Assembly (NCBI RefSeq): GCF_006345805.1
Contig: NC_043009.1
Span: forward strand, 58,404,001-58,468,000
DNA length: 64,000 nt
Direction: 5' to 3'
Source: Octopus sinensis
Lineage: Eukaryota
The notes beneath the pieces are model-generated. The model did not search any database, was not told the origin of the DNA, and saw only the letters and a list, made by a program, of their open reading frames with translations. Every line of letters starts with the position of its first letter. Within the stretch, counting starts at the first letter, position 1. The translations under genes were made by a program, and so were the position numbers. Below, piece after piece: positions 3,441 through 58,989 of the stretch.

Positions 3441-3581
3441 CTGTGTATCTTTCTGTTGAAGAGCGTAGGCTCGAAACCTAAAAGACTTGTTTTATTTCTA
3501 TTCCTGAGCGCCATACTAATACAATTGTTTGTTTGTACTCCACCTGCCTTCGTCTTTTGTTTATTTTCGTAAAGCTTTCTG

Positions 3582-3585
<4 letters not shown>
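3441..3585 (+). mobile_element. Penelope-like terminal fragment, family F1, with variant hammerhead at 3448-3485
   Basis: tcttt-CTGTTGA-A-GAGC-gtag-GCTC-GAAA-CC-TA-aaaga; shares flanks with copies at about 7430-7590, 12065-12245 and 30870-31070; ends in (TA)n. Confidence 0.65.
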
Positions 3586-3618
<33 letters not shown>

Positions 3619-3932
3619 TTCTCTCAATCAAGGGTTGTTATAACGGACGGTATTAATGCTTTAGATTAAACAATCAAGTGAATCAGAGTGTAACATGAAT
3701 TAATGAATGGCAGGAGAACACAAATTCCTTAAGAACGTTCATTATCTTAGAGGTTTTACTTCAACAAGAACCTTGCATTGTGGCAGAGAATATATAACAT
3801 ACATGTTAGTGGTACGTGTATTCACAACGTCAGGAATCAACGACAAGAACGGTAAAAGTAAGTTTAAGTAAGGTGTCACATTTAACGATGCACCATAGAA
3901 TGTCAAACAATAGAAACTGTTGAGGTTACATA

Positions 3933-4344
3933 GGCGCAGGAGTGGCTGTGTGGTAGGTAGCTTGTTTACCAACCACATGGTTCCGGGTTCAGTCCCATTG
4001 CGTGGCACCTTGGGCAAGTGTCTTCTACTATAGCCTCGGGCCGACCAAAGCCTTGTGAGTGGATCTGGTAGACGGAAACTGAAAGAAACCCGTCGTATAT
4101 ATGTATATATATATATATGCGTGTGTGTGATTGTGTCTGTGTTTGTCCTCCTAGCATTGCTTGACAACCGATGCTGGTGTGTTTACGCCCCCGTCACTTA
4201 GCGGCTCAGCAAAAGAGACCGATAGAATAAGTACTGGGCTTACAAAGAATAAGTCCCTGGGTCGATTTGCTCGACTAAAGGCGGTGCTCCAGCATGGCGA
4301 CAGTCATCACTGAAACAAGTAAAAGAGGTAAAAGTGGTAAAGAG
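3933..4344 (+). mobile_element. tRNA-derived SINE, family A (CORE-like segment, internal microsatellite)
   Basis: Head with A-box TGGCTGTGTGG and B-box GGTTCAGTCC; CCTTGGGCAAGT CORE-like motif; internal (TA)n(TG)n; GTAAAAGA-type tail; about 10 copies in the window. Confidence 0.85.
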
Positions 4345-5702
4345 GCATAAATCGCAAAGTGAGAATTAGGATAAGGAAGTGGAGTCTCATAACATAATCA
4401 TTAAATCTACTCATGTGTATGACAAAAAACAAAACAAGCTTTCCACTGAACAGCAATCGCCCGCCTTACTATATATGTAACTGAATATGTAATAACTATA
4501 CCGTTAAGCTCCCCAACACCATAACCACTACTGCAAGCAATGCCGACAACATCCCGGGCAATAACAAATTTTAAACTCCATAAAATTTAGCTGTCTGATA
4601 ACCTAGGCCTTAATCTAACTCTCCCTCTCGCTCTACACACACATTTGTATGTATGTCTATATATAATTACGAAATATCCCGGGTCTTACTCCCAGTATGA
4701 TAATCCTCTATTCGACTCGAATCCCTATAACATAAGCAACAACAAGGTCTAAGTAACGTTAGCCTATCATGTGGACACTCTCACAAAATCCAAACATTGG
4801 TTCCTTGCACAAATACATCCATCACCGACATCCATCCAAAAACCATTTACGACTACACTTTAGTAACACTCTGTTCAACATAAAACTCACTAGAGTTCCG
4901 AAAAATATCGATAAGCACCTATAATTATTAAAATATTTATTCTGGAATAACACATCTTTGTTAAATATATTATAAGGCCGTATTCCTAACAGTGACAGAT
5001 ATATTCAGATATTCCTGCAGCCTCCTAACTATTAACGACCTATAAGTCCACTGTGAGATCTTTGATTTTAGCACGCTTTTGGTTATCTTTTACCTGTGTC
5101 TATTGCAAGTATCTATATTAATTTTATTCATATTCATTTATCCAAAATTTGTCGCTTTCAGCTAACGGTTTAATATACTATTTAATATACTATTTTCTTC
5201 ATATGACAAAACGATAATATTTATAACTTAAAAGCCTTTAAACGAGAACAGTGTTTTGAGGTTAATGGCCGGTTGTAGAAATTATGGGTCGATGTCTCAT
5301 GGAAATAAATATAATACAAAGGTGCGAAGAGAAAAAAGTGAAGGTGTTTAGAGTTATTACATTGTATATTATTGCATATTATTGTTGCATATTGTTGTGC
5401 AGCATTTTATTGAGTTTCGTGTCGTTATATAGCTGAAGATGGTATTCTGTACTCAAGGATATTGTCGCATATCAATTAAAGAAGTCGTAGAAAGGCGTTT
5501 TATGGCAATAAAAAACGTTGAGGAACAATTTAATGTATATGATGCCGACAGTTATAAGAAGGATTAGTCAAGCGCACATATTCACTACGGTATACACTCA
5601 CACATACAATCAGACATACGTATTCATGTGTATGTGTGTATGTATGTATGTATGTATTGTGTGAAGCTTGTATGTACATACGCCCACTTACACGTATATA
5701 TG

Positions 5703-5734
<32 letters not shown>

Positions 5735-5883
5735 CTTACACATGTATTATCTATCTAACTACCTATACATCTATCTACCTACACACACATACACACATGC
5801 GCATATATATATAAATATATATGTACATATATGTTTGTATATATACGCACACACACATATATATATATATATATATGTATAGG

Positions 5884-5915
<32 letters not shown>

Positions 5916-6134
5916 CAAACATATATATGTGTGTATATATACACATATATATATATATGTATGTATAGGTATAATATAATATACATATATATATATATAT
6001 ATATATACATATATAAAATATATATATATGTATATATGTATGTATGTATGTATGTATGCATGTATGTATGTATGTATGTATGTATGCATGTATGTATGTA
6101 TAAATCTATATCTATAGCTATATATATATATATG

Positions 6135-7050
6135 CAGTTGTGGGCATAGCTAACCAAAAAGTTACCATTGCCTAATCACTAATCCGCTAAGTTAAAAAGA
6201 GTTAGCTTCGCAAATGCTAAACCGCTAAACAGGTAATAAAAGAAATTTAGCGGAAGCTAACGCTAAATGTTAACCGCTAATTTTTATCATATGAATTCAG
6301 CTTCTATTTGGTTTTGGGACTCTGAAGCCCGTAATAACAGACCTTGAGAGCTGAAATCTTCATGCTGTGTCTTAGATATAGATCTTTCCATAAATGTATA
6401 GCATGACAAGATCAGAAAATGATCAATGTGTACGTAAGTAATAAAATGAACGAATCAAATTAGACATTAGTTTTTTAGTCAATATACAATTTATATACTA
6501 TACAAAAAGTATTCAAGGTATCAAAATGGAATAGGTATCATGCCAAGATCAGAAGATTATCGAGCTGTGCTACTCTGGATGGGCGTTCTCTGTCGCCTCG
6601 ACGTGATGCTGGTTGCCTTTCTTAAACACCAGCCTCTCAAAGTTACAATCAAGCAGGGAGGCTCTCTTGTCCATCAAAATATATTTGCCAATACAGAATA
6701 GGCGCTCAGCTGCAGTACTGGATGGAATGGCGGTGTTATACTTGGTGAATTGGCTGATCAACGCCTGCTCAACCAGAAACGCGACTTAAGTCAGGTCCTT
6801 CTTCCAGACGGTTTCTTTTTCTTGCAGATGGAACTTGTAATGGATGTCTACCATGGCATGGACGAGGATATCAAATGAGCCGAGAGCAGGTCAAAACGGC
6901 GCGTCTTGGGATCCAGTGAGTGCGCTGTCATTTGCAGGTAGGATCTTTTGTGGGCCGACCAACAGTCTGAGTTAGTCGCCACCCAGGGGACATGCTTGAA
7001 TAATCTGTAATTTAAAAATGTTAAATTGTAAAGAGCATATGCTGTAAAGA
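6135..7050 (-). mobile_element. hAT-superfamily transposon remnant
   Basis: ORF 6570..6761 (-) contains PSSTAAERLFCIGKYILMDKRASLLDCNFERLVF, resembling the hAT C-terminal dimerisation motif. Terminus CAGTTGTGGGCA at 6135 is followed by repeated CCGCTAA subterminal motifs. The right boundary is uncertain. Confidence 0.7.
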
Positions 7051-7077
7051 TAAAAACTTAAATTTATATATATATAT

Positions 7078-7415
7078 ATAATATTAATTCGAGACAAAAC
7101 CACTATTTTGCAAATCAAACAAGGAAAGACTTAATCAATACATAAAAAATTTCAATATAAAGTAAATAAATATTTATTTATTTACTTTATTTATTTATTT
7201 ATTTATTTTATTTATTTATTTATTTATTTATTATTATTTATTTACTTTATATTAACATTTTTTATGTATTGATTAAGTCTTTCCTTGTTTGATTTGCAAA
7301 ATAGTGGTTTGGTCTCGAATTAATATTATATAATATTTTACTATAAAATTGGATTTAATCCTAAATCTGATTTTTTTCCCTGTAATTTTGGATTTATTCC
7401 CTAATATTTATTATA
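7078..7415 (+). mobile_element. Fold-back element (inverted arm, copy, tail), same family as 32101-32490
   Basis: Arms at about 7078-7170 and 7235-7330 are inverted around a (TTTA)n spacer. Tail TATAAAATTGGATTTAATCCTAAATCTG matches about 32423-32451. Confidence 0.75.
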
Positions 7416-7429
7416 CATATATATATATA

Positions 7430-7590
7430 GTTGAAATTTATAGAGGAAACAAAAAACGAAAGAGTGTATGAAAAACAAAGAAATGTATTCAGTTTCATGC
7501 TCGGGAAAAATGGAGAAGTCTTTCACGTTTCGAGCTTACGCTCTTCAACAGAAAGGAATAACAGAAAATGAACGGAGGGAAAATGAAGAA
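7430..7590 (-). mobile_element. Penelope-like terminal fragment F1 with variant hammerhead at 7519-7556
   Basis: Minus strand: ccttt-CTGTTGA-A-GAGC-gtaa-GCTC-GAAA-CG-TG-aaaga. Confidence 0.6.
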
Positions 7591-8322
7591 AACTTATAGA
7601 ATTCAGCGGTCCAGCATGGTGGTGGCTACCGCCAATTTAAAACCAACATGGAAATAAGTCACCGTCACTAAGAGTGACAAGGGTGCAGTGAACAACAGCA
7701 TTGCTAGAAATAGGAGTCGTAGACTCCTTAGTCACAAAAGCATATGGTCCCTTTGTATTGAGACGGGAGAAAACCCTTTCGAATCTGACCGATTTGCATT
7801 TGATTAGCATGGTAATTTCGTATAGGAAATTAATACCCATCAGTAGTACTCACTCCATCACAGCTGGTAGAGGATAACTCACTCCTTTCTATATTATGGA
7901 GAATGCCATCGTGACTGGTTTCACAAAGTAGCAATGTGACAATTATAAATGAATCAAGGTGACAGGAAATTATTTAAACCCAACAAAGAAATAATTCATC
8001 GTCACTATATATAAATTGAGGCAGGGAGGAAGAAGGCATAGCATTTGATCGCAACATCTTGTAACCATATTTCCTTTATAGAAATCATACAGATTGCAGT
8101 TTAACGTTTGATACTAGGCTGTTCTAAATTCATGGAAATATTGCTTATGATTTGAAGCATTGTTATTAAAATTTTGAAAACTTGACAGGTGATGCGTTGG
8201 ATGTGATGAATAACCGGGATGAGGGATGGAATGAGGGTCAGAATTTGATAACTTCAGAAGATTCCTTTATTCCTTACTTCATTAAAGATTGCAGTTTTAG
8301 CTGTGCAAACTTAATCAAGAGT

Positions 8323-8361
<39 letters not shown>

Positions 8362-8737
8362 TTGCTAATCAAAATAATTATCATAATATATAATATATGA
8401 TATGTATGTATATATGTATGTATTTATGTATGTATGCATGCATACATGTATGTATGTATACATGTATGTATGTATGTATGTATGTATGTATCTATCTATC
8501 TATCTCTCTATTATCTAATATATCTATATATATATATAACATATGTATATATATATATATATATTATATATAATATATATATATATATATAAACCGTATA
8601 TTATGTATTTCGGCAATTTGATTAGCCATTATATATTGTATTACATTAAGAAAATTATTATTTAATAATTAATTAAATAATTAAATGAAATTAGATATGA
8701 AATTCGCCATAATTGTAATGCAGTAATCTTGAATAAA

Positions 8738-9451
8738 TCCTGGAAAGTTCCCAGGAAAGGAAGGACACCCTGGAAAGTTCCAAGGAAGGAGAGAAGGTAA
8801 ATGACAGTTCCGAGGAGGTAAAGTACCATCTGGAAAGCTCCGGGGGAGGGGAAGTGCTTCCTTGAAAGTGCCAGGGAGGGGGTGGAGGGGTGGAATGAAT
8901 GTCTGGAAAATACTGAGGAGGGGGATGTACTTCGTTGAAATTTCCAAGGATGGGAGGAAGTACTTACTGGAAATTTCTGAGAGGAATGGTTTCCTGGAAA
9001 ATCACGAGGAGGGGATGTACCACTTCCTGGAAAGTTCCTAGGATTCTAGTGGGACATCATAGAAAGTTCCGTGTACGGGGACGAAATTTCCAAGAAAATC
9101 CGTGGGAGGGGACGAGATTACCTGGAAAATTCCGAGGACTGGGACGAGACATCATGGAAAATTCCAAGTGATGGCGGAATGAATTCTAGGAAATTGGGGG
9201 AGAAGGGGAATGAGTTCCTGGAAAGTTTCGAAGATGTGGAGGAAGTAATTCCAGGAAACCTCCGAGGAAATGGAAAAAGGGGGAGGAAGGAATTCCAGGA
9301 AAGTAGGTATGAGCGGAGGTAGTAGTTCCTGTAACGTTCCGAGGAGGGTGAAGAGGGCATGACTTCCTAGAACGTTCCAAGATGGGGCAGGAGATACTTC
9401 CTAGAAATTCCTGAGGAAGGGAAGAGTGGAGTTACCTCCTACAAAGTTCCG
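8738..9451. repeat. Degenerate minisatellite, about 22 units with roughly 30-33 nt period
   Basis: Recurring core TTCCTGGAAAGTTCC separated by G/A-rich variable segments. Confidence 0.8.
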
Positions 9452-9550
9452 GACTAGCTCTCAGTCTATTCTATGTACTATGCTTGATACATTTTGGTGT
9501 TCGTCTGGTATGCCGATATTATGTTCATTTTTATGTGTCTTGATTATGCA

Positions 9551-9608
9551 TGCACTGACGAGTAAAAAGTGCATTTTGTGCACTAATTATGAAATCATAT
9601 GATTTGCA
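9551..9608 (+). ncRNA. Type-I hammerhead ribozyme motif
   Basis: tgca-CTGACGA-[GTAA..AGTGCA ttttg TGCACT..TTAT]-GAAA-TCATATGA-TT-tgca; palindromic stem III. Confidence 0.65.
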
Positions 9609-9876
9609 GCTGAATTCGTTTTTAAAAGGCTCGCTTCGAAAGTTGCATTCCCTCGCGTTCAGTACAAAATGTGTTTATTATGGTAGTATGGACTTTAAGA
9701 GTCTCTCCTAGTTTGAGGCATTTATGTATAGTAATGCCCTTAATATAAATAAATATATCTACAGGAATAAATGATAAATCTTCCCTTATGAGGTTTTCAT
9801 GCTAACTACTTGATAATTTCTTATAAATATTTTATCCTATTTTAAAATTATATATTTATTTATTTATTTATTTATT

Positions 9877-9955
<79 letters not shown>

Positions 9956-10140
9956 GAGTGAGTGAGAGAGAGAAAACTGTACGCCGAGAAAAGAGAGAGC
10001 AACACCCATCATTGAGCTTGACTGTCAATGCAATAAGTGTAATTATTGAAAGAAAGGAAAACAACCTCTATGATAATTTGGCTTCTTATGTCTGAGTGTG
10101 AAGCACTTGATTCAAATCAATGAAACACCTTATCTCGCTT

Positions 10141-12064: not shown

Positions 12065-12245
12065 CGCTAACCACTACACATTCTTTATTTTCTCTCCTTG
12101 TTTCTTTCTGTGTTCCTTTCTGTGGAAAAGCATAGGATCGAAACGTTAAAGACTTCTTCCCTTCCCGAGTATGATACAAATACATCTGTTTGTTGTCTAC
12201 ACGACCTGTCTTCGTATTTTGCTTTTTGTTTTGTTAATTCTCCAT
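12065..12245 (+). mobile_element. Penelope-like terminal fragment F1 with degraded hammerhead at 12115-12152
   Basis: ccttt-CTGTGGA-A-AAGC-atag-GATC-GAAA-CG-TT-aaaga; (TA)n on both sides. Confidence 0.55.
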
Positions 12246-16706: not shown

Positions 16707-16960
16707 CTATATATATATAAATCCATAATGAAAGTAATTCAAATTGAAACTATATAATAGTGAAAATACTAATATAGATGGCATGGTTAGAGATAAGAGA
16801 TTGCTCCGAGCTCGCATTAAGCAAGAAAATTAAAATTGAGTATGATACTGCATGGATCCTAACGTAAGAGATTTTTGAATGAAATCTTTCGGGTAGTTCT
16901 CGAGATTTTATTGTTGCATACGGACAAAAAGACAGACACTCATTCTCAGTTATATATATA

Positions 16961-17168
16961 GTTAGTTAATCCAAACAAGAAAACACAAAAAAACACAACA
17001 ACGCGAGGACGTGGAACAAATATAGTATTATTGGACGCTCAGGAAAGAAGGAAAGAAGGAGGGTTTAACGTTTCGAGCGGAGCTCTTCGTTGGAAACATA
17101 GGAGAAGGAAAGATCCAGAGAAGGGAAGACAGAGGAAAAAATCGCCAACGGTACACACGAGGTCACAT
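16961..17168 (-). mobile_element. Penelope-like terminal fragment, family F2, with degraded hammerhead at 17063-17097
   Basis: Minus strand: gttt-CCAACGA-A-GAGC-tcc-GCTC-GAAA-CG-TT-aaac; homologous to 49597-49805 and 31100-31200. Confidence 0.65.
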
Positions 17169-17414
17169 TTATATATATATATATTGTTACTCTCTCAAAT
17201 TTCACTTGAATTTAGATGAAGAAAAATGGAGCGTGTATCAGTATACTTGCTAAATTGTCTGAGCAATTATACTTAAAGGAAAAAAACCTCAAAAGTAAAA
17301 GAAAAAAAGACACGACATGCAGTTGTATGAACTAAACATTTGTTTCGATTTGAGGTGCAACACTAGATGGCGTCTGACAAGCTCAGCAGTAAATAATAAT
17401 GTCGATGACAAAAG

Positions 17415-21543: not shown

Positions 21544-22802
21544 CGAGGGACGTTCAATAAGTAATGTCTCTGACCCACTTACAGTTGTTTGATCTAGCTG
21601 AAATTTATATCTTTATAGAGTAAGTGGCAAATTATAGCTCTGAATTAATTGTGGTTTCTGATTTACAGGAGTCAAGTGTGAAATGGAGCCTGTTGAGTGT
21701 CGAGCAGTGATCCGGTTTTTGTATTTGAAAGGACGCACACCACGGAGACTTTTGATGAAATGAAAGTAACTTATGGTGATGATGCCCCATCATATGACCT
21801 TGTAAAACGCTGGCATCGTGAATTCAAACATGGTCGGAACTCTGTGGAAACAGCTCCCAGATCTGGTCGCCCCCTTCTGCCATTGATGAGGCATCTGTCC
21901 GTCAAGTTGAGGCTGCCATTTTGGAAGATCGACGCATAATTACTCGCCAAATAGCCCATGAGGTCAAGATTAGTACCGGGTCTGTGGAAACCAATTATTC
22001 ATGACAATTTGCATATGCAAAAGGTGTCTGCCAGATGGATTCCCAGGTTGCTCACGCCTTTCCAGAAGCAAGAACGCGTCGAGTGCTCGAGGGTGAATTT
22101 GGAGATGTGCCAAGATGAGTCAAAATTTTTCAAAAGACTGATTACACAGGATGAAAGCTGGGTCCATCACGATGATCCAGAGACCAAAACCCAGTCAATG
22201 CAGTGGAAGCACCGTGAATCACCCCCTCCAAAGAAGGCAAGGGTGCAGCCCTCCGCTGGCAAGGTCATGCTCACAGTCTTCTGGGACCAGGACGGAGTAG
22301 TGATGACAGATTTCCTGGCAAAGGGTACCACAATTGCAGGAGCCTATTATGCTTCACTTTTGAGGAAATTAAGAGAAGTTATCAAATTCAAGAGGCGGGG
22401 CAAGATCCGCAAAGGCATCCTCCTCCTGCAGGACAACGCTCCGGTCCACAACTCGCTTGTCGCCAGATCAGAAGCACAGGCGTATGGCTATGAACTCCTC
22501 CCCACCCACCTACTTTCCTGACCTTGCACCCTCTGATTTTCACCTCTTCCCAATCAAGAAGTTGTTTTTGAAAGGAAAGCGTTTCCCAGATGATGCAGCC
22601 TTGACTTCTGAAGTCACGTTGAGGTTGGAGGACCAAGCTGGGTTCTTCTACAAAAACGGTCTCCAGAGCCGCATCAACCGATGGGAGAAATGCGTAACTC
22701 TGGGTGGTTCCTATGTAGAAAAATACTAATAACTGTGCCAAGTTCCGTTGCTCTACTGCTATGGGAAGTGGGTCAGGGGCATTACTTATTGAACGCCCCT
22801 CG
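21544..22802 (+). mobile_element. Full-length mariner (DD34D) transposon, 1259 bp
   Basis: 37-bp TIRs at 21544-21580 and 22766-22802 (34/37 identical); TA target duplication at 21542-43 and 22803-04. Confidence 0.95.
21683..22729 (+). pseudogene. Mariner transposase, frameshifted
   Basis: MEPVECRAVIRFLYLKG..., RSGRP, WIPRLL, ITQDESW, LLQDNAPVH, YFPDLAPSDF, RWEKCVTLGGSYVEK, spread over several frames. Confidence 0.92.
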
Positions 22803-27873: not shown

Positions 27874-28857
27874 CTGAGTTAGTAGTAGTTAGTAGAGGCG
27901 GTTTTTGGATTACAGCAAGTGTAGTAGTTTGCTTTTATGATTTTCGTCTCACGCGCTTCCAAAGTCAAATGGTCTAGTGGTTAAGACGATTGTACACGCG
28001 GTCGCATGATCGCAGTTTCGATTTCAGCGATGAGCGCAGGAAGTTCACTTCATTTCAGATTATTTTTGTCTTACTCATTTGAAAGGTACACTTGTCCAGC
28101 TATCGTCTGTGTGTTAAAACTCAAACGAGTATGAGTGCAATGGCGTGTTTCAGATTCTAATATAACTATGATTATTACAAAGGATATACGTAAAAATGAT
28201 GTGTAGGCTGTGGTTTCGAATATGATTCTGAATTTAAATGTGACAGTAAAAATGTAAACCTATATTAAACCTGTAATTGTAGATAGGGCTTGAATATGAG
28301 TGCTTAACTGTATGCGCAAATCTAGGTTTGAAAGAAAAGTTTGCATATCAAATTTTGAGAAAGTCTGGTGACGTTAGAATGGACGTAAGTTTGAGACCCT
28401 GCGCAGGTATTTGTATACATGTGGGTCTAAATTTCATCAAAATGTGGAGGAAACGGAAAATGCTTACCGATGTTGAAAGGAGTTTCACACGAAATGGTCA
28501 GGAAGTTAACCGATAGCTTGTGAATCTCGGAGCACAAATGCAGCGAACAGAGGAAAGAAGCTTGCAGAAGCATTCCGGTTGCGGTTTTAATTCTTGGTTG
28601 AATATCCAGGCAGGAATTAACCATTTTATGGGTTTAAAGAGTTGAGTGTATTTAAATGAGAGTGCAGTTATGGTTATAAATATCAGTGCCACCAGAGTCC
28701 TAAGATGGAGGTTGTAAGCTTCGAATTGATCGCGAATATAAACACAGGAAAACTTGTTTGAGTCAAAGAATGTGTTGTAACCTGTTGCTTCTATGTATAT
28801 ATATATATATATATATATATAAATTAATCAAAATAAAAACATGATGCCAAGGATTCA

Positions 28858-28935
28858 GCGATACATATGTTTCGGGCCTTTATTAGACGGATTTATAACA
28901 ATGCATAATGTGTATCTATGGCCTTCTTCAGCCGC
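28858..28935 (-). ncRNA. Type-I hammerhead ribozyme motif with long loop II
   Basis: Minus strand: gcgg-CTGAAGA-A-GGCC-(41 nt)-GGCC-C-GAAA-CATATG-TA-tcgc; GUA cleavage triplet. Confidence 0.7.
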
Positions 28936-29605
28936 GCACAATTACTACCTCAAGGACATGTGTTACATCAAAAATTCTACGTTGGGGATGCAAATCCTCT
29001 CAGTCGCGCACGACATAATGCGGTACCAGCACAAAAATGAAGCGTCCATCTCGTCCTTCTCTCAATATATATATATGTTTGTGTGTGTTTTATTATGTGT
29101 GATATTTGAGCATAGTTTCGAATGCAGTGAGTATGAAGTACTTATGCGTCATTGCGTGTTTGTGTAAAACTTTGATACAATGAATGAAAATACGATATGT
29201 GAGCAAGACGTCTTAAGCGTAGGCATCTGCAACATTTTATACATACATTGTGATATTTGAATAATTTACTGAGAGTAGTCCTGGGTATTTTACAGAGGGA
29301 ATATCAGTGGCGAATTAAATGACAGTGAAAGTATATATATAAATACGGAATGGATGGATGTATCTACGAGTAGGCAAGTTACATACCGCAGGAGTCAGAG
29401 ATTGTGTAGCTGGGATTTGATCTAGTGATTTACACTGCATAGTTATATTGTTGTGAATATTTATTATACGTAGCTATGGAAGTATACATTAGTGTGTACG
29501 GAGTTCAGTGTCCATCTGAGTAAGAAATATAGTCAAATGGGAGAGTTACAAAGGAAAGTGTCCGAGAAGGTTTATCTATCTATCTTATCTATCTATCTAT
29601 CTATC

Positions 29606-30869: not shown

Positions 30870-31070
30870 GTTGATTCGTTAGCTACTGCACGCATTTTTT
30901 TTCTCTCCTTCTTTCTGTGTTTTCTCTATCTGTGATCTTCTGTTGAGAGCGTAGCTCGAAACGTTAAAGACTTGTTTTATTTATATTTCCTGAGCGCCAT
31001 ACTATACAATTGTTCGTTTGTTTTCCACCTGCCTTCGTCTTTTGTTTATTTTCATAAAGCTTCCCGTTAT
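30870..31070 (+). mobile_element. Penelope-like terminal fragment F1 with variant hammerhead at 30936-30970
   Basis: tctt-CTGTTGA-GAGC-gta-GCTC-GAAA-CG-TT-aaaga; within (TA)n. Confidence 0.65.
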
Positions 31071-31099
31071 ATATATATATATAATATATATATATATAT

Positions 31100-31198
31100 A
31101 GTTAATCCAAACATGAAAACAAAAGAAAACACACCAACGCGTGGACGTGGAACAAGTATAGTGTTATTGGACGCTCAGGAAAGGAAAGAAATGAGGGG

Positions 31199-31200
<2 letters not shown>
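31100..31200 (-). mobile_element. F2 terminal fragment without the ribozyme
   Basis: Matches 16965-17063. Confidence 0.7.
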
Positions 31201-31282
<82 letters not shown>

Positions 31283-31344
31283 ATATATATATTATATATA
31301 TTTCATATATATATATTATATTATATTATATTATATTATATTAT

Positions 31345-32054
31345 ATATATCAAATAAAATGAGACAACAAAGCCGAACGCTATGTGGAATTTTTCGGACA
31401 TGTATAAAGATGAAATTAGCCTTACAGCTGTTTCTAGGATATTAGGGATATCCCTTCAGCAGAAACGAAGAGAGATGGTTAAATAGAGGGACATATTATA
31501 ATTCAATATAAAGAATTATTTAGGAAAAGGATGGAAATGGGGAATATAGGGGGGAAATAGGAGAATGAATGTAAAAATAAAAGTAAAAACAAGAATATAT
31601 AAAGATGTCATAGGTGCATTTCCATTATACAAGGAAAGTGATATCGATAATGGAACTGTAATTATATAGTATCTTTATACGTTGTATTCTTATTTTCTTC
31701 TACATTCATTCTCTTATTTCCCTACATACTCCTATTTCCTTCCCTTTCTAAAATAACTCCTTATATTGAACTCGAATATTTCCCTCTATTTAAAACTCTT
31801 TCATCGTCTCTCATGAAGGGATATGGCTAATATCCCAGAAACAGTTGTAAGACAAACTTTCTCTTTGTAAAAGTCCTGAAAATTCCACACAGCCTTGGTT
31901 TTGTTGTCTCAGATTATTTAACATATATTTGCTCATAAAAGACCCACGTTAGACTTGTATTATTATCGAACCGAGAGTTTAACTACGGTCCTTACATAGT
32001 TTTTACATACCGCTATCTGCTACCTTGGTCTTCTGGATACCAAACCCTCTCTCA

Positions 32055-32055
<1 letters not shown>
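31345..32055 (+). mobile_element. Fold-back Penelope-like end with a hammerhead in each arm (31419-31467 minus; 31806-31853 plus)
   Basis: Diverged inverted arms at about 31345-31607 and 31670-31928. Right: gtct-CTCATGA-A-GGGATAT-ggcta-ATATCCC-A-GAAA-CAGTTG-TA-agac. Left: CTGCTGA...GAAA-CAGCTG-TA. The consensus core is CTGATGA. Confidence 0.7.
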
Positions 32056-32100
<45 letters not shown>

Positions 32101-32110
<10 letters not shown>

Positions 32111-32490
32111 AAATTAGAGACAAAACCACTATTATGCAAATCAAACAAAGAAAGACTTAAGCCAATACCTAAATTAAAATAATTTATATAAATTAAAATT
32201 TAACAAATGAATAACCACTTCATAGTTTATAACTCGCTAAGAAGGTTTAGAAACCACCTGAAGAATGTCTGAGATGTGCTGACACGAAACGATCGTAGTG
32301 GTTATTCATTTGTTAATTTTAATTTATATAAATTATTTTATATTTTGTATTGGCTTAAGTCTTTCTTTGTTTGATTTGCATAATAGTGAATTTGTCTCTA
32401 ATTTATTATAATATATATTTTATTATAAAATTGGATTCAATCTTAAATCTGATTTTCCTTGTAAATTTGGATTTATCCCTATATTTATTA
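32101..32490 (+). mobile_element. Fold-back Penelope-like end
   Basis: Inverted arms 32101-32219 and 32297-32414, followed by a tail shared with 7331-7415; preceded by (TA)n. Confidence 0.8.
32252..32303 (+). ncRNA. Type-I hammerhead ribozyme motif
   Basis: AACCAC-CTGAAGA-A-TGTC-tgagatgtgct-GACA-C-GAAA-CGATCG-TA-GTGGTT; 6-bp stem I, palindromic stem III, GUA triplet. Confidence 0.8.
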
Positions 32491-32932
32491 TTATTATTAT
32501 ATTATATAATAATATAATATATGAATAAATGAAAGAAGGGAACGAACGAAGATTTTAACAAAATTCCATTACTCTCTCAACACATTACCACACAAGACCA
32601 CGGGTTTCTGTCCTTGACATGTAGCTTCAACAGTGTTTTCTGACGTGAATTTGCTACCTAGGTATCGATTAACCGAATTATTAATATTGATAATTCATTC
32701 GCCTACTTCAATATATATATATATATATATATATATAGGTATATATATATATATATGTGCGTGTGTATATATACATAATACATATATATATATACATACA
32801 TATATTATATATATATATTATATATATATATATATATATAATATATATATATATATGTAGCACTTGGTATAATTATAAACAGGGCAATTTTAATCATTTC
32901 TCCACAGACTGAAAAGCTATAACGATGAACAA

Positions 32933-32973
32933 CCTTAGTCGATTTTCGAACCTTATTGGGTTCTCATCAGAGG
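32933..32973 (-). ncRNA. Type-I hammerhead ribozyme motif with canonical core
   Basis: Minus strand: cct-CTGATGA-GAACC-caataa-GGTTC-GAAA-ATCGAC-TA-agg. Confidence 0.75.
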
Positions 32974-33099
32974 CGTCTACATCTTTCTGACGGTTTCCCC
33001 GAAACGTTATGGGCCAAACTGTTTATATACTCAACAAATGCAGTAGTTACTCTATGAAGGAGTCTCTAATTTGCATACCGAAAGTGTTTCATATATATA

Positions 33100-38900: not shown

Positions 38901-41481
38901 CAGTAGTTTATTTATAGCGTGCTTTCACTTCACTACCGAGCGCACTCTGTGTGCCTTGGGTATGTGCTGTGATTTGTTGTGTGTGCTCTGATGGTTATTG
39001 TATGGAAAGTGTTCTGCGTAGGATGTGTGCAGTGCCTAGTAGTGCAATTTTCTGTATGTTATATGTGTTTGTAAGTCCTGGTGTTTTTGTTATGTATTTG
39101 TCTGAATATGTTTTTCATCATGCCTAATGCACCTACTATGATAGGAATTGTTTCTGTTTTCAGATTCCACATTCTAGTTACCTCATTTCCAGGTCTTTGT
39201 ATTTTGAGAGTTTCTCCATTTCTTTTAGAGACACGTTGTCACTGCCGGTATTGATACATCAATTAGAAAGCATTTTTTTTCTCATGGTCTCTGACAACTA
39301 TATCTGGTCTGTTGGCCTTAATTTCTCTATCTGTGTGTATCGGCATATCCCAGAGTATGGTTGCTTTCTCGTTTTCTGTGACCTTTTCTGGTGTGTGCCT
39401 ATACCATCTTTTTTCTGTTGTTATTCCATAATGTTGGCATAGCTTCCAATGTATGTAGGTTCCAACTCTGTCATGTCTGTGAATATATTCCTTCTTAGCC
39501 AGGACTGGGCAGCTAGAGATAATATAATTTATTGTTTTTTGTCCATCTCCACATATTCTGCAGTTCCTTGTAATATTTCTTTTCATTACATGTTTTGGTA
39601 ATTTCTGGTGGGGAGGCTTTGGTCTTGTGCTGCAATTAAAAATCCCTCTGTTTCTGCTTTGAGTCCTGAGCTTCTCAACCATTGCTGGGATTTTTCTTTG
39701 TCTATTTCTTTTGCGTTTAGTTTAGTGCAGTATTTACCATGAAGGGGCTTTTCTTGCCATCGTTTTATCATGGTTCGTTGCTGTTCTATTTTTAGTTTGG
39801 ATTTCATTTGTTTTATAGCTTTTGTTGTTTTTTCATCATCATCTTCTTCTTCTTCGTGTTTATTAGGTGGTATGATTTCTTGTTTGTATTTGTCAGCTTC
39901 CTTAAATACTGAGAACAGTTTTTTGTTTTGCCTCGTGTTTTGCTGCTATCGGGATCAGTTTTCCTCCTTCTGAAGTAGGTATTTTTGCAGTCCTATGGTG
40001 GTTATTATAGTAGTTTTCCAGTTGTATAAGGCCTCTACCACCTTCTATACGTTGTATATATAGTCTTTCTATGTCAGATTTTGGGTGATGCATCCTAGAT
40101 CCTGTCATTATTTTTCTTGTTTTCCTATCTATTTTGGTCAGTTCATTTCGTGTCCAGTTAAGGATATTGTAGCTGTAACTTATAACTGGGACAGCTAAAG
40201 TGTTGATATCTATTATCTTGTTTTTAGCATTAAGCTCTGTGTTTAGTATTGATCTAACTCGTCTATAATATTCTTTTTTTATTTTCTCTTTCATTTGTGT
40301 GTGTTGTGTCTTATCTAGTTCATGGATTCCTAAGTATTTGTAAGTTTGGCTTTGGTCTAATTCTTTTATTTCATTGGTTTTATCTAGTGTGATGTTGTTA
40401 CTACTTAACTAGTTTTCCTCTTTCAGGGTTACTTTGGCGCATTTTTCTAATCCAAATTTCATATCTATTTCTTTGGTAAATCCATGAACTGTCTTTAATA
40501 GTGTTTCCAGCTGTTTGTCATTTGCAGCGTATAGTTTTAGGTCATCCATATATAAAAGGTGGCTGATCGTTTTGCCGTAACATTTATATCCGCATCCAGT
40601 TCTATTTAGCATATCAGATAGAGGTGACAGTGCCAAGCAGAAAAGGAGTGGAGAGAGCGTGTCTCCCTGGAATATTCCTCTTCTAATGGGGATGTCTTTG
40701 GTTTTCATGAGTCCCTCTTTTTTTTTTGAGGTGTAGGACTGTTTGCCATTTATTCATAGAGTGCTCTATGAATTTTATGATTGTTGGTGCTACTTTGTTA
40801 TGGCTAGTGTTTCGAGGATCCATGTGTGGGGGATGCTATCAAACGCCTTTTTGTAGTCAATCCAGGCCATACTGAGGCCTTTCTTCTTTCTGTGGCTGTC
40901 TTCAGTTACGGCTTTATTAATCATTAGTTGATCTTTACAGCCATATGAGCCTTTGCGGCATCCTTTCTGCTCTTCTGGGAACAGTTTGTTTTCGTCCAGG
41001 TGCTTGTTCAGCCTTTGCGATATCACTGCAGTAAATGCCTTGAACATAGTAGGGAGGCAGGTTATTGGTCTGTAGTTTTCTGGTTTTGCTGTTTCATTTG
41101 ATTTGGGAATTAAGATGGTTTTTTCCCCTTCGTGAGCCATTCAGGCATTGTCTCTGGCTCTGCTAGTATGCTGTTAAAGTTTTCAGCCAGCTTTTTGTGC
41201 ATTCCTGTTAGATATTTCAACCAGAAGTTGGGGATCTTGTCATGCCCAGGTGCCTTCCAGTTGCTTAGTTTTTGCAGTGCCTGGGTGACCTCTTCAGTTG
41301 TTATGGGGGTCCAAAGTTGTTCAGATGCCGAGTTTGTTTTTTTGATACTCCTTTTTTTTGGCTGTTCGTTCGCCGACCATATTTCTCTCCAGAATTCTTC
41401 CAATTCTTCTGCCGTTGGTGCTGCAGTGACTTCTATTTTATTTTTTCCCAGTTCTTGGTAGAACTTTTTGGGGTTGGAGTT
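38901..41481 (-). mobile_element. 5'-truncated R4/Dong-clade non-LTR retrotransposon (RT, zinc knuckle, restriction-like endonuclease), frameshifted
   Basis: NYRPITCL, EQKGCRKGSYGCKDQL, WIDYKKAFDSIPH, RGIFQGDTLSPLLF, HLLYMDDLKLY, CRICG...ISSC, RHD, NRPDIVV; C-terminus ALLGTAHILRRTLSIQ* (stop 38995-38997); flanked by (TAA)n on its sense strand. Confidence 0.9.
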
Positions 41482-41511
41482 GATTATTATTTATTATTAT
41501 TATTATTATTA

Positions 41512-42554: not shown

Positions 42555-43783
42555 TTGGGTTGGGTAAAATGTAAGCAACGTTATGAACCATGAAAACTTT
42601 GTACTGGATTTTTACAGAATTTTATGTTTTTTAAATAAAGATTTTGAAAATGTCTGATAATACTGACATAGACCTGCCGAAATGCATCAATAAATTAACA
42701 TTTATATTGTTTACGCCGTTGTTACAATAATCTGAAATGGAACTGTCAAAGCGCGATATTCGAGAAATTTTTCTATTCAACTCCAAAAAAAGACGTAAAG
42801 CAGCTGAAACTGCTCGCGATATCAACGAAGCGTTTGGTGAGGAAATGCAGTGAGTGGTCAGCTCGAAAATGGTTTAAACGATTTGGGAGTGGAGACCTTT
42901 GCCTTGCAGATCGTGAGCGTAGTGGATGCCCATCTGTCATCGATGGTGGTCAATTAAAAACCGTCATTGAGAAAGATCTACGTAAAACCACTCGAGAACT
43001 GGCAAAAGAACTTCAAGTTAGCCAGAAAATCGCCTGCAACCATTTGCATGTGATCAGAAAATTTAAAAAAACTCGATAGATTGGTACCACACGATTTGAA
43101 TGAAAATCAGAAAATGCGCAGTTATGAAATTTGCTCGTCCCTTCTTCTCCGTAATCAGACCGATCCATTTTTCGACTGTATTGTAACCTGCGATGAAAAG
43201 TGGAATCTGTACAATAATAAAAATATGCTCTTCAGGGTGGTTGGCCCAAAATGAAGCCCAAAAATCTTCCTTAAACCCGAGCTCTTCAAAAAGTACGTTA
43301 TGGGGACTGTTTGGTGGTCTTAAAATCTATTGGTATGAAGTTGACAAAATGAACGAAAAATCTGCTTTTCCTCCGTCCCAGACTAATCAACAAAAGAGGA
43401 CTAATCATTCTTCATGACAATGCTGAACCACACGTTTCACTCATGACGCTCCAGAAGTTGAGGATACTTGGCTACGAAGTACTTCCCCACTAAGCTTATT
43501 CCCCAGAACTTTTTCATACCGACTACCACTTTTTCAAGCAACTTGATGGTTTCCTGTGAGGGGAGTTCAAAATTCAAACCGATGCTGAAAGTGCTTTCAA
43601 AGAGTTCATCAACTCCAGAAATCCAGATTTTTATGTTACCAGAATAAACAAACTTGTAACTCGTTAGCGAAAATGTGTTGATTGTAATGATAATTACATT
43701 GATAAATAAAAGTTTCGCATCGTTGAAATATATAGTGATGAATTTCAGGTTTCAAAATGTTGGTTACTTCTCACTCAGCCTGA
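42555..43783 (+). mobile_element. Mariner transposon, cecropia/Hsmar1-like, degraded
   Basis: Diverged TIRs TTGGGTTGGGTAAAATGTAAGCAACG and its inverse ending at 43783; TA flanks. Confidence 0.85.
42737..43709 (+). pseudogene. Mariner transposase pseudogene
   Basis: MELSKRDIREIFLFNSKKRRKAAETARDINEAFG, ERSGCP, LVPHDLNENQK, IVTCDEKW, LHDNAEPH, YSPELFHTDYHFF, KCVDCN; carries stops, frameshifts and an internal deletion. Confidence 0.9.
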
Positions 43784-44759: not shown

Positions 44760-45699
44760 CCGAGTAGGCGTTTAAGTTTCCATTTTGATATTTTTGCTTT
44801 GCTACATCAAATTTTCTACGACGTACTAGCCGAAAACTATAATGATTCCTCGTTAAAATTAATTATGCATTTTTAAAATTCCTCTCTTTGATATGTGTAA
44901 TTTCAGCGGTATTACTTTTGTATTGAATTGCTGTGTTGTCAATTGTCAATAGTCAATAAAATTATTTTAATTTCGACAAATTTATATTTCGTCAAGTACT
45001 TTTTATATCTTATTATTTCCACATATAATTTCGTTCATTTACTTAACGTTGCACGAACCTTGGTTAAAAGCAAGCTATCTAATCGAAATTTACTGAAATG
45101 GTACCAGATCCCTACGTATTACCAATGATTGTCGGAAAGCATGAGAAAAAGAGAAACACAACAGACAAAAATTTTCTTTCGCAAATTCATATCCGCTTTT
45201 GAGATAGCCTTGCATCAAATTATCGGTATATATGATATATTTAGAGAGTATACTAACGTGGAACGGCACTAGCTATACGATTTTGTCCGAAAGAAGCTTC
45301 TCAAGGAAGCTTCTGTTAAAACAAATCTTTGCTCAAACTCTTGTATTTTGCCGAACACGGTGTTTCGACCTAATGTTGTTCACTCTGTGACGAATGCACC
45401 GGAGGTTCCCTGTTTATCAAGACAAATCAAAAATATCAGAAATCGTCAGAAAGCATTTATAATTGTATAATCTAATTCAGTTATTAAATGTTTGTGTCTC
45501 TAATTTTAGGTATTCTATGGTAATTATATTAGTGAAATTAATTTCAAACGTCTGAATATGCATCTGAAAGAGTACCATCTTGTCTATGACGGTAAAGAGA
45601 AACCATAGCTTCGATTTTGTGGATTGGTCGTGAAACTGCCGAACTAATAAACCAAATATTCAGTCCTGAATAATGCGACATCGTTTCTTATAAAATAAT

Positions 45700-46263
45700 T
45701 ACTGATAAATTGAGCGATCATTTCAAGAAACATCTAAATATTCTGATCGTATCTAATAAATTTCAACATTGTGTAATGAAAACCGATCAATTATGCGGTA
45801 ATTGGGAAATTGAGATGAGATTGTTGACGCGATATTGCAAATTCGAAGATAACGCTTTGAATATCGCTGATCGTCTGATACGTGATAGAACTGACAAATT
45901 TGCGCGACACGAAGAAAAGTGCTTGTCTTCCGACATGAAAATCCATCACTCAGTGATGTAGGAAAAGCTGCAATCTCTATTGTTCGTGCTAAAGAAGCTG
46001 AATAACTACTTATTGGTGCAACGATATCAAGCAAGATATTAATGATATTTCTGAAAGCTTCTTCGAATTCTGTAGAACATAATAACCTTAACGTTATTCA
46101 TTGTCGAATTTCACATAAAGATATTACATAATTAAATAACCAATGGGAATGTTATGTAAATTGTTATATCGATCGTAAAAAAAAAATTATTGCCCACATA
46201 TAAGAATGAAAAATGTAGCAAAATCTAACATTTAGCAAATACATACTTGATATTAAAATGTAA

Positions 46264-49586: not shown

Positions 49587-49992
49587 TATATTCAATATGT
49601 GACCGGGTGGGTATCGTTGACGATTTTTTTTACTCCGTCTCCCTTTCCTCGGATCTTTCCTTTTCCTATATTTCTGACGAAGAACTCCGCTCGAAACATT
49701 AAATCCTCCTTTTTTCTTTCCTTTCCTGAGCATCTGATAACATTATACTTCTTCCACGTCCTCGCGTTGTTGTGTTTTCTCTTTTGTTCATGTTTTGGAT
49801 AACTATATATATATATATATATATAGATATATTTATATTTATATATGCGATAAGCTACTTCCAGTTTCCATTTACCAAATCCCCACTGACAAGGCTTTGC
49901 TCGGCCCCGAAGCTATAGTTTAGAAAATATTTGCCCAAGGTGTCTCGCAGTGGGACTGAACCCAGAACGCAGTGTGATTCTTACCACACTGC
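49315..49992 (-). mobile_element. SINE family A split at its internal microsatellite
   Basis: 3' half at 49315-49520 and 5' half at 49855-49992. Confidence 0.7.
49597..49805 (+). mobile_element. F2 Penelope-like fragment with hammerhead at 49670-49704
   Basis: attt-CTGACGA-A-GAAC-tcc-GCTC-GAAA-CA-TT-aaat; homologous to 16961-17168. Confidence 0.7.
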
Positions 49993-51886: not shown

Positions 51887-51949
<63 letters not shown>

Positions 51950-53278: not shown

Positions 53279-53323
53279 ATGCTTCTGCCCCGATCAGAGG
53301 TTTACTTATCCTTTCTCCCTAAT

Positions 53324-53373
<50 letters not shown>

Positions 53374-53433
53374 TTTACTGGGGTTATGGAAGAAGGATAA
53401 GTAAACCTCTCATCGGGCATCGGGGCGGAAGCG

Positions 53434-53434
<1 letters not shown>
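53279..53434. repeat. Inverted repeat with arms of about 50 bp around (TA)n
   Basis: GCTTCTGCCCCGAT..AGAGGTTTACTTATCCTT and its reverse complement at 53393-53432. Confidence 0.75.
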
Positions 53435-53465
<31 letters not shown>

Positions 53466-53761
53466 ACAAAGGGAGAGAAAGAGAGAAGCGGAGAGATATA
53501 TGTGTTTTGACATCTGTGAAACCTTATTCATTTTATCCTACACACACGTCAGTTCAGCCTGTTGCATGGCACCTCATCCTATTGTTCTTTCTGTGTTAGT
53601 CCTAAATCTTGTTTAATAATCAATTATTAATACAATCACTCTAGTCCGGCACACATGTACACCAGCTAGACACACAATCCATGCGCGTGCACACACACGC
53701 ACGTACGCACACACTACATATTATTATATATGTTATTAGTAGACGAAGCAACAAAGCTGTG

Positions 53762-54214
53762 GGCCGGCGGAATCGTTAGCACGCCGGGCGAAATGCTTCG
53801 CAGCATTCCGCCCGTCTTAACGTTCTGAGTTCAAATTCTGCCTCGGTGCACTTTGTCTTTCATTCCTTTCGTGTTCGATAAAATTAGTACCAGTTGAGCA
53901 ATGGGTTCGATGTAGCGACTAGCCCCTCCTACCTAATTTTTTTGCCTTGTACCTACTTTAGAAAGAATTATTATGTGAAGCATTTCACATTCAGTTTTGA
54001 ACGGTGAGCTGCAGAATTGTTAGCACACCGGGCAAAATGATTAGCGGCATTTCGTCCATCTGTAAGTTCTGAGTTCAAATTCCGTCTTGGTCGATTTTCC
54101 ATTTCATACTTTCGGGGTCGATAAATTAAGTACCATATAGAGCACTGGGATCGATGTAACCAATTTATCTTCTCCCCACAAATAACTGGCCTTGTGCCAA
54201 AATTTGAAATCAAT
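53762..54214 (+). mobile_element. Two tandem SINE family B copies
   Basis: Family B head and core at about 53762-53969 and 54002-54214. Confidence 0.75.
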
Positions 54215-57200: not shown

Positions 57201-57364
57201 AATTATAAATGTGAACGAACGGGACATAAATGGATGAAACGCGTATTTAAATGTAGGACCAGTAATAATTGGAAATGCATAAAAGCTAGCAAGACTTATT
57301 TCTTGATTAACAAAATCTAATGTAAATGTTTCGAAATGCACGAGTGGGGAACTCTCTTTCCCTC

Positions 57365-57453
<89 letters not shown>

Positions 57454-57488
57454 ACCTTTTTATCTATCTATTTCTCTCTTTCTCTCTT

Positions 57489-57526
<38 letters not shown>

Positions 57527-57588
57527 ATGTATAAATGTATATATTCAATTGTAACTGAAGTTGGGAGTTTTCCAAAGATTCAGTCGGC

Positions 57589-57676
<88 letters not shown>

Positions 57677-57747
57677 CTATCTAACTATCTATTTATCTAT
57701 CTATCTATCCAGCTAGCTGTCTGTCTGTCTGCCTGTCTGTCTGTTTG

Positions 57748-57826
<79 letters not shown>

Positions 57827-58944
57827 TTATCTATCTATCTTTCCATCCATCTTTCCATCCATCTATCTGTCTCGCAGACCATTCTATTTTGCTACTTCAG
57901 ACAGCGAAATATAAAAAAAAAAAAAAAAAAAAAATTAAAAAACGTTCGTTCTTAACGGTTTGAACATCGAAGATACGCTTATGCTAATAAAAGCTTGTTG
58001 TGGTCCTCTTCCACTCACACATACATTATGCACCAAAGTCTCTTTCTGATTATAGGAAGTAGCAAAGAAAATCTTCGGCGCAGTTTCCCCCATGTTTTGA
58101 CCGAAAACTTGCTGCACTTAGACAGCAATCTATAATCGATCATTTTAAACTGCCATCGGCGAAGGACCAAGAGAAATATAATTAAACTCCGCAATATAAC
58201 AATCACTATCCTCCTTCTATCACTCTTGCATCCATTATCCCCCTCTTCTTTATCATTGTCTCCCTTTCTATATTCCTCTCTCTCTCTCTTCTCTCCTTTT
58301 CCTATCCCCCACTTTCTCTCTCTCTGTCTGTCTTATGTTATGTTGTTGATAACCTTTGTTTATTTGACTAATATCTCGCTTTGGTGTTTTCGGTTTTTTT
58401 TTTTTGATACGAACAAAGAATTACAGAAAAGAATATCAAGCAATCAAAGAAAAAGTTGCACCTTTATATTTCAAATATATTCTTATTGAAATTGTGCAAC
58501 ATCACAACAATAATAAATAACATTTTTCCTGTTCTGTGTAACCGAAAAACGAAAGCAACTTAAGTTTACACACACGCACACACACACAGACACAGTCAAA
58601 CACACACGCACACACATTCACTCACACACAACGCACATATATATGCATATATCTCTGTATGTATATACAATTCATATGTATATATATATATATATATATA
58701 TACAATCCATATGTATCTATATATATATATGTATACATATGCGTATATATAAATATTATATATATATATATATATATATAGTGAAATATATTTACCACTT
58801 AAACGTGGCTAACCCCTAAGGGTGGATGCTACTGTAGATTGTGGTCCCAGGAGGACACCTCCTCCAGTTGGCTGTTGACACACTTTCTGTGCCCTGTCAG
58901 TACTTGCAAAGGGAAGCCATTCTTCCCGTCTTCAACCTATGATA

Positions 58945-58989
58945 CACACGGACTCGAGTTTCTGGGTATTGACCCGTAATCAGCGTGTG
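58945..58989 (-). ncRNA. Type-I hammerhead ribozyme motif with G8 changed to U
   Basis: Minus strand: CACACG-CTGATTA-C-GGGT-caat-ACCC-A-GAAA-CTCGAG-TC-CGTGTG; GUC triplet; inside an island of about 230 bp flanked by TA-rich sequence. Confidence 0.7.

Follow-up and report, generated by a model that had tools for sequence, protein, structure and literature searches.

Minimal hammerhead ribozymes of type I topology have been described in the pseudo-long terminal repeats (pLTRs) of metazoan Penelope-like elements (PLEs), those of molluscs included. They are found genome-wide, in many families per genome, mostly solo and also as opposite-strand pairs 100 to 700 bp apart, and they combine a short helix I, an extra base between A9 and G10.1, a palindromic helix III, and a U-rich 5' flank (PMC4209133). 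Over 6000 motifs in 16 families have been reported from a coral (PMC7229834), and small PLE-associated variants with a short palindromic stem III act as dimers (PMC6765202). Animal retrozymes that lack long terminal repeats (non-LTR retrozymes) are short, noncoding hammerhead units from PLE terminal repeats whose dispersed monomers can dominate (PMC7229834; bioRxiv 10.64898/2026.07.22.740005), and their copy numbers can be very high, up to 120,000 in the axolotl (PMC7229834). Here, we analyze a 64,000-nucleotide (nt) stretch of the Octopus sinensis genome (contig NC_043009.1, positions 58,404,001 to 58,468,000; the window) that resembles both systems in these respects.

The window is microsatellite-rich animal DNA with a GC content of 35% and contains a long interspersed nuclear element (LINE) remnant and a mariner remnant. 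Judged from its sequence, it holds 14 hammerhead-shaped motifs from nine repeat families (A to I), most copies of which are decayed. We consider it probable, at roughly 0.82, that these motifs are the minimal hammerheads of the pLTRs of about nine PLE families, left behind as short truncated or nonautonomous copies that a PLE protein encoded elsewhere inserted into (TA)n, most of them now with disabling mutations. The kind of system is already published, so that the gain lies in scale and in variants and not in a new class. An annotation of octopus repeats lists 31 recently active PLE families and, in the part available, does not mention ribozymes (PMC13282606). Our search of the literature on hammerheads in octopus or other cephalopods, and on nonautonomous PLE hammerheads resembling short interspersed nuclear elements (SINEs), found no report of such a population.

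Hammerhead motifs in the window

A preliminary description of this DNA had named 13 of the motifs, and all 13 were verified in position and strand (Table 1); the 14th, of family I, lies outside the range that it covered. Its estimate of seven or eight families also held, since eight occur among those 13 motifs (A four times, B and C twice each, and D, E, F, G, and H once each) and the 14th motif adds a ninth. Family B is represented by a 3' fragment as well.

The similar hit rate in shuffled sequence that the description had named as grounds for doubt was not seen. With at most one core mismatch allowed, a hammerhead descriptor matched 8 loci, compared with a mean of 0.2 to 0.27 (maximum, 1) in dinucleotide-shuffled sequence (15 global and 15 local shuffles), and a perfect-core descriptor matched 3 loci, compared with 0 in the same shuffles. 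An additive hammerhead score of ≥20 was reached at 10 loci (0.225 in 40 local shuffles; maximum, 1) and a score of ≥24 at 7 loci (0 in the 40 shuffles). The descriptors were tuned after the motifs had been seen, so these controls are somewhat optimistic; the margin is large. A scan for long helix II segments gave 7 matches, compared with 0.17 in 60 shuffles, and yielded the 14th motif. As a set, the hammerhead population is thus confirmed as real and not a product of chance.

Searches that ignored pairing were less discriminating. A helix-free, sequence-only pattern matched 11 times against 4.5 ± 3.2, a number equaled by 4 of 100 shuffles, and a sequence-only model gave 11 matches, every one of them an already known motif. 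The copies at 12115, 30936, and 49670 fail the descriptors, yet they are 75 to 91% identical to copies that pass and so are decayed family relatives. No hammerhead family was among the 150 Rfam matches listed at an E value of ≤1, nearly all of which were microsatellite noise. A scan for permuted hammerheads (type II/III or non-circular) found none in the window and returned only D and I. Two candidates were dropped, one at 45696 to 45740 with a chance-level score of 18.2 and a single copy and one at about 32990 to 33010 on the plus strand that is without stem I. From this one window, the density is 14 motifs per 64 kb (95% interval, 120 to 370 per Mb) and that of intact motifs is 4 per 64 kb (17 to 160 per Mb).

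The CUGANGA and GAAA core, with its UH cut site, is perfect in six copies (D, E, F, G, I, and B at 49670), and the rest carry one or two substitutions or a deletion. Core and all helices are intact in D, F, G, and I only; E has a perfect core and a single stem III mismatch, and the remaining nine copies have core or stem damage. The claim of at least 12 ribozymes therefore stands for the presence of the motifs and not for their condition, since 10 of the 14 copies show damage and, in the two commonest families, core substitutions occur at the level of the family. In family A, whose copies are 78 to 94% identical (four pairs compared) and to which family B is distantly related, all four copies have U6 (A6U), a change beyond copy-level decay. 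The two C copies have different core mutations, indicating that the core of their ancestor was probably canonical. Both U4C, found in B, and A6U are predicted to weaken cutting. In vitro, U4C cuts poorly, yet it is sufficient in a viroid, and A6C cuts at <0.1 per minute (PMC3088659); a mutational scan found changes in this core turn to be nearly all low in activity (PMC9901934).

Stem sequences differ across the nine families while pairing is kept, and stem III is a short palindrome of 4 to 10 nt, both as originally described. Within a family, two-sided change was seen once, as a G-C to A-U swap in stem I of B (49670 versus 17063). An extra base lies between A9 and helix II in 10 of the 14 motifs, with A and B matching the published pattern, and E and G pair G10.1-C11.1 directly; the 5' flanks of A, B, and C are U rich. 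In C (both copies, A-A), D, F, and H, one additional base on each strand at the foot of helix II forms a one-by-one mismatch, and the helix II segments of G, F, and I span 29, 51, and 61 nt, respectively. These helix II features, together with U4C in B and A6U in A, are unlike the published minimal hammerheads (PMC4209133). Among the 56 motifs in Fig. S3 of that paper, obtained with a descriptor that excluded both changes, none has U4C or A6U, and in one an additional A precedes GAAA. Novelty cannot be claimed for the core variants. Some of them may already be among the dimer-cleaving PLE hammerhead variants reportedly described by Lunse, Weinberg, and Breaker in 2017.

Monomer fold z-scores were unremarkable for D, F, and G and reached -3.6 for I. 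The palindromic stems are predicted to favor dimers: in seven of nine modeled copies, the predicted dimer fold was better than two monomer hammerhead folds by 8 to 17 kcal/mol, and for D, H, and the C copy at 31806 it lay within 2.3 kcal/mol of the best cofold.

Insertion anatomy and relation to Penelope-like elements

The (TA)n preference that had been noted earlier was borne out and proved to be 3' polar. Of 13 cut sites, 11 are followed by a (TA)5 run no more than 250 nt downstream, against a background of 26%, and 6 have one upstream; the copies are not independent. Units of 200 to 400 nt end 3' in (TA)n, and the distance from cut site to (TA)n is 94 to 107 nt in all six A and B motifs. 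Both D insertions consist of an inverted arm followed by a forward arm. Because the arms are more alike within an insertion (95 to 96% identical) than between insertions (89 to 93%), each pair of arms came from one event. The inverted arm ends at an internal TA-like site, and the forward arm continues through a tail of ~85 nt. The C pair has the same layout, with a tail of ~130 nt and arms that are 79% identical.

Several features support a PLE origin and, with it, the earlier assignment of the motifs to the minimal type I hammerheads of PLEs. As in the metazoan PLE consensus (PMC4209133, Fig. S3), 10 of the 14 motifs have the additional base after A9, and the 5' flanks of A, B, and C are U rich. 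An inverted 5' arm with a one-sided tail is a published PLE signature, and a bias toward (TA)n has been described for PLEs as well (PMC8557442). The 94- to 107-nt spacing in A and B is near the ~85 to 92 nt implied for a PLE of the anole (PMC11167929). In that element, Poseidon of Anolis carolinensis, two internal reverse transcription starts lie ~90 nt 3' of the cut, the tail is optional, and the targets are AT rich, as here; its tail is 30 to 40 nt long and its start site is not homologous to the target, whereas C and D have tails of 85 to 130 nt and a TA-like inner end point (PMC11167929).

Loci from other animals link the motif type to PLEs. A pattern based on A and B retrieved 97 metagenome loci, some of them duplicates of one another. 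In seven of these, a PLE profile match lies upstream on the same strand, in five cases ending 84 to 88 nt before the motif. Locus L019 has an RVT_1 match, with reverse transcriptase and endonuclease 0.7 to 2.2 kb upstream of the motif. The endonuclease of L052, whose GIY-YIG match (E value, 0.002) misses the cutoff, was matched by tblastn in 16 of the 97 loci, duplicates included. The CX2-5CxxC linker of Neptune-type endonucleases is present in 34 of the 56 profile proteins, and an inverted arm lies upstream in 28 of 90 loci. With PLE coding sequence upstream of it in some of these loci, the motif type of A and B is, on sequence evidence, a PLE pLTR ribozyme in other animals, and from this we infer a PLE partner in the octopus genome.

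By sequence, families A and B are most like ribozymes of the Neptune clade. Most of the 97 loci match the published Neptune ribozyme of Acropora digitifera, whose core, 4-bp helix II, and 4-nt palindrome are nearly identical to those of A and B (PMC4209133). The Neptune-type relatives in metagenome contigs lie ~90 to 100 nt behind a GIY-YIG open reading frame (ORF); the flanks of A and B are unrelated to those of the Neptune ribozyme, and here the two families form fixed-length, ORF-less units between TA runs. A6 is present in all 97 metagenome matches and U6 in none, and an A6U pattern had no matches in viral contigs.

Several results weigh against a PLE origin. The preliminary description had proposed a search for PLE reverse transcriptase and GIY-YIG ORFs, and the window yielded none: 292 of its 296 ORFs, four low-complexity ones being left out, were compared with Pfam and showed no GIY-YIG domain and RVT_1 only in the separate LINE; a profile of 56 PLE proteins gave nothing below an independent E value of 0.2; and tblastn of the window with two PLE fragments found no PLE ORF. 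The loose ends of family B, among those listed, likewise have TA-rich sequence upstream and not an ORF. The Neptune link consists of a 27-nt motif common to distant animals, and the tails here exceed the published 30 to 40 nt. At 79% identity, the C arms may represent two insertions or a very old one. Finally, the dimer fold is not favored for A at 3448 (+10.1 kcal/mol) or B at 17063 (+1.9 kcal/mol), and it lies at least 5 kcal/mol above the best cofold in six of the nine modeled copies.

Under a PLE origin, spread would begin with transcription of a tandem PLE precursor. Pairing between the palindromic helix III strands of two hammerheads would form a dimer in which cutting takes place, probably at a low rate or with the aid of a protein. 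The endonuclease would then nick (TA)n, and reverse transcription would begin ~100 nt 3' of the cut site, at or near a UA-rich site, or at the far end of the 85- to 130-nt tail. Early termination or template switching near the ribozyme would leave solo or inverted pieces, some of which (A and B) would have become SINE-like nonautonomous families. Inserted copies would decay neutrally while their TA runs drew further insertions, which would account for the cluster at 30870 to 33092.

That cluster packs five hammerheads and two ribozyme-less fragments from five families into 2.2 kb, mostly separated by TA runs. Elsewhere, a homologue of the C tail at 59005 to 59140 stands alone, suggesting that tails can be placed separately. 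Upstream of the A copy at 7519, ~700 nt on the minus strand (7600 to 8325) lack microsatellites, contain small hairpins, gave no protein match, and may belong to a longer form of family A. A purine-rich, degenerate tandem repeat at 8660 to 9470 adjoins the family G element upstream.

As for where copies begin, the forward copies of D and H start 15 to 35 nt upstream of stem I, and those in coral-like metagenome loci (L008, L013, L047, L065, L072, L088, and others) often follow an inverted arm and have their start no more than ~10 nt upstream of the core. Truncation points seem to be concentrated immediately 5' of the ribozyme. Two pieces in the window, the D inverted arm at 32097 to 32219 and the B fragment at 31099 to 31198, have their start at the predicted cut site, as would be expected if cut RNA had been reverse transcribed, although this evidence is anecdotal. 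We rejected the cut site as a general start of truncated copies, because the second D insertion starts elsewhere and the depth of family B has no step there.

Family B beyond the window and competing origins

We aligned contigs from four public sequencing runs, which are short at this repeat, to positions 16780 to 17300 at 80% likeness. In run X1, summed depth came to 2 to 5.8 million over the B element, whereas the unique flank had about 46. The ratio corresponds to 4 x 10^4 to 1.3 x 10^5 copy-equivalents, a rough figure since a depth ratio is not a copy number. About 10^5 copy-equivalents agree in order of magnitude with 3 copies per 64 kb and, rough as they are, sustain the earlier suggestion of a very large ribozyme-carrying system. 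Among the loose ends listed, those at both ends of B are TA rich, indicating a unit of ~215 nt with fixed ends.

G5 accounts for 94 to 100% of the depth in all four runs, so that G5A is private to the window copy. At position 4, U accounts for 21 to 33%, making U4C the majority state at about three-quarters of the depth; the alignment reference carries C4, and the share of U4 may therefore be undercounted. CpG decay at a neighboring site, for comparison, is 5 to 6%. There was no step in depth at the cut site (5.4 million upstream and 4.7 to 5.8 million downstream) and no peak of beginnings or ends there among the loose ends listed. None of six candidate long proteins contained a family B translation, which is weak evidence. 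CpG-decay variants at 17088 to 17089 make up 5 to 6% in three of the runs and 1 to 2% in X11, a difference that an enrichment of younger B copies in X11 would produce. Runs X11 and X22 both contain family B and are only guessed to be RNA; none of the listed runs with this family is recorded as RNA.

These data bear on whether A and B could be monomers of non-LTR retrozymes. Tandem arrays elsewhere would give rise to circular RNAs by self-cleavage and ligation, and one-turn reverse transcription would yield unit-length copies with fixed ends. The 5' and 3' ends of B are indeed fixed, both in TA, three A copies have a common 5'-end motif, and the size of 200 to 215 nt fits. Several head-to-tail B joints (17184-17189 to 16963-16990) occur in X1 and X2, and monomer fractions of up to 1 have been reported (bioRxiv 10.64898/2026.07.22.740005). 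However, the window contains no tandem pair or array, and each joint is at single-copy depth (40 to 58) among ~10^5 copies, as insertion into the TA flank of a neighbor could also produce. Moreover, U4C and A6U cores would cut poorly, and the motifs here are minimal, whereas published retrozymes have canonical hammerheads (PMC7229834). We think a retrozyme origin unlikely, and it can be a subcase of PLE-driven spread compatible with the PLE origin proposed above.

The short units might alternatively be ordinary SINEs moved by a microsatellite-targeting LINE, with the hammerhead shape a passive relic. Their size and copy number are SINE-like, the window lacks a PLE ORF, and a frameshifted LINE remnant with RVT_1 matches (39263 to 41490, minus strand), which we take to be of the R4/Dong type, lies beside (AAT)n and (GAT)n runs. 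Nevertheless, by eye the alignment shows no tRNA-like head or poly(A) end, insertions made of an inverted arm plus a tail are hallmarks of PLEs, and the motif type follows PLE endonuclease ORFs in other loci. On balance, a LINE-driven origin is improbable.

The long-helix-II motifs F, G, and I might also be the missing ribozymes of Naiad PLEs, which target (TA)n and for which half cores alone have been reported. In two cephalopod Naiads labeled HHR_half_core, 35 to 50 nt separate the halves of the core (PMC8557442), and the F and I spacers measure 51 and 61 nt. Five window motifs, that of family I not among them, nevertheless had 0 matches in the available supplement of PMC8557442, where line wraps can hide matches, and the 3' ends of four cephalopod Naiad consensus sequences are, by eye and with few consensus sequences in existence, unlike F, G, and I beyond 12 nt around the core. 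On these two grounds we rejected the link as very improbable. By eye, the "half core" in the 3' ends of Naiad_Obim and Naiad_Ovul (PMC8557442, File S5) contains each of the three hammerhead blocks, the cut site coming first, GAAA second, and CUGAUGA last, and the strands of stems I and III match. This arrangement is similar to the SGC permutation, a non-circular one (PMC10085705).

The barely enriched sequence-only pattern, the monomer z-scores of D, F, and G, and the Rfam result might speak for chance matches in DNA that is AT rich and full of repeats. Such matches have a negligible probability and are refuted for the set as a whole by the shuffle margins (7 versus 0 at a score of ≥24), the recurrence of motifs at the same place within repeat families, and the restoration of G5 in the B majority.

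Other repeats and biological meaning

The features of the window are collected in Table 1. Apart from these, remnants of mariner-type transposases occur on the plus strand at 21697 to 22729 and 42699 to 43076 (Transposase_1, HTH_48, and HTH_32). An abundant repeat at 3927 to 4310, with about 12 related copies that are 69 to 91% identical, has a tRNA-like head and an internal microsatellite and is without a hammerhead; it is likely a tRNA-derived SINE.

Table 1. Hammerhead motifs and related elements in the window (positions count from its first nucleotide)
Feature	Position	Strand	Description
Family A hammerhead	3448..3485	+	Core CUGUUGA (A6U), extra A9a, helix II of 4 bp, damaged stem III; element ~3435-3583 followed by (TA)n
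Family D second insertion, without hammerhead	7059..7415		Inverted arm ~7070-7170 and forward arm with ~85-nt tail; arms 96% identical
Family A hammerhead	7519..7556	-	A6U; position 17 is G; element from 7430 to 7633 or beyond, with (TA)n at its 3' end
Family G hammerhead	9551..9608	+	Intact, with perfect core; helix II segment of 29 nt; palindrome of 10 nt; 250 nt downstream free of (TA)5
Family A hammerhead	12115..12152	+	Decayed but still with U6; element 12066-12243, (TA)n at either end
Family B unit, ~215 nt	16957..17170	-	Lies between (TA)n runs; hammerhead at 17063-17097 has U4C, the majority state of the family, and private G5A
Family F hammerhead	28858..28935	-	Intact, with perfect core; helix II segment of 51 nt with A-C mismatch at its base; palindrome of 8 nt; element ~28822-29065, TA runs on either side
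Family A hammerhead	30936..30972	+	Decayed by single-base deletions but still with U6; element 30870-31068, (TA)n runs on either side
Family B 3' fragment	31099..31198	-	Between (TA)n runs; 5' end within about 3 nt of predicted cut site
Family C hammerhead	31419..31466	-	A6C; inside inverted arm 31350-31640, which ends at (TA)n
Family C hammerhead	31806..31853	+	G5C; forward arm 31646-31925 and ~130-nt tail to (TA)n at 32054
Family D inverted arm	32097..32219	-	Start no more than 1 nt from predicted cut site; 95% identity with forward copy; without tail
Family D hammerhead	32252..32303	+	Perfect core, 6-bp stem I, A-C mismatch at helix II base, 8-nt palindrome; best-preserved copy; element 32220-32490, ~85-nt tail
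Family E hammerhead	32932..32974	-	Perfect core, direct G10.1-C11.1, one palindrome mismatch; element ~32862-33092 between TA runs
Family B hammerhead	49670..49704	+	Canonical CUGACGA core, helices II and III damaged; element 49593-49805
Family H hammerhead	58945..58989	-	G8U, likely dead; 6-bp stem I, C-A mismatch at helix II base, 8-nt palindrome; element ~58782-59005
Piece homologous to family C tail	59005..59140	+	E value 3.5e-6; inverted, directly upstream of H hammerhead
Family I hammerhead	60575..60666	-	Intact, with perfect core; stem I of 6 bp; helix II of 61 nt (-20.6 kcal/mol); palindrome of 8 nt that includes one G-U; ~30 nt before (CA)n(TA)n run

A stronger form of the PLE reading is possible, although we regard it as doubtful. 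If the window is typical, with ~220 motifs and ~60 intact ones per Mb, this genome would hold one of the densest hammerhead populations known. Its top nonautonomous PLE families would have been amplified with weakened cores (U4C and A6U) that keep the fold and the ~100-nt priming spacing, the hammerhead serving mainly as a structural handle for the PLE protein, beside active variants with a mismatch-closed or 50- to 60-nt helix II, some of whose cut products would have been inserted directly.

The function of PLE hammerheads has been called unclear (PMC8557442), and cutting is dispensable for insertion in vitro (PMC11167929). With about nine families in 64 kb, the window offers a natural comparison, in which the intact D, F, G, and I motifs lie beside a family of ~10^5 copies with a U4C majority. 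If copy number does not track cutting rate, then catalysis is not what is selected. Our results also suggest that, in genomes of this sort, PLE derivatives recognizable by their ribozyme fold are among the short repeats labeled SINE or unknown.

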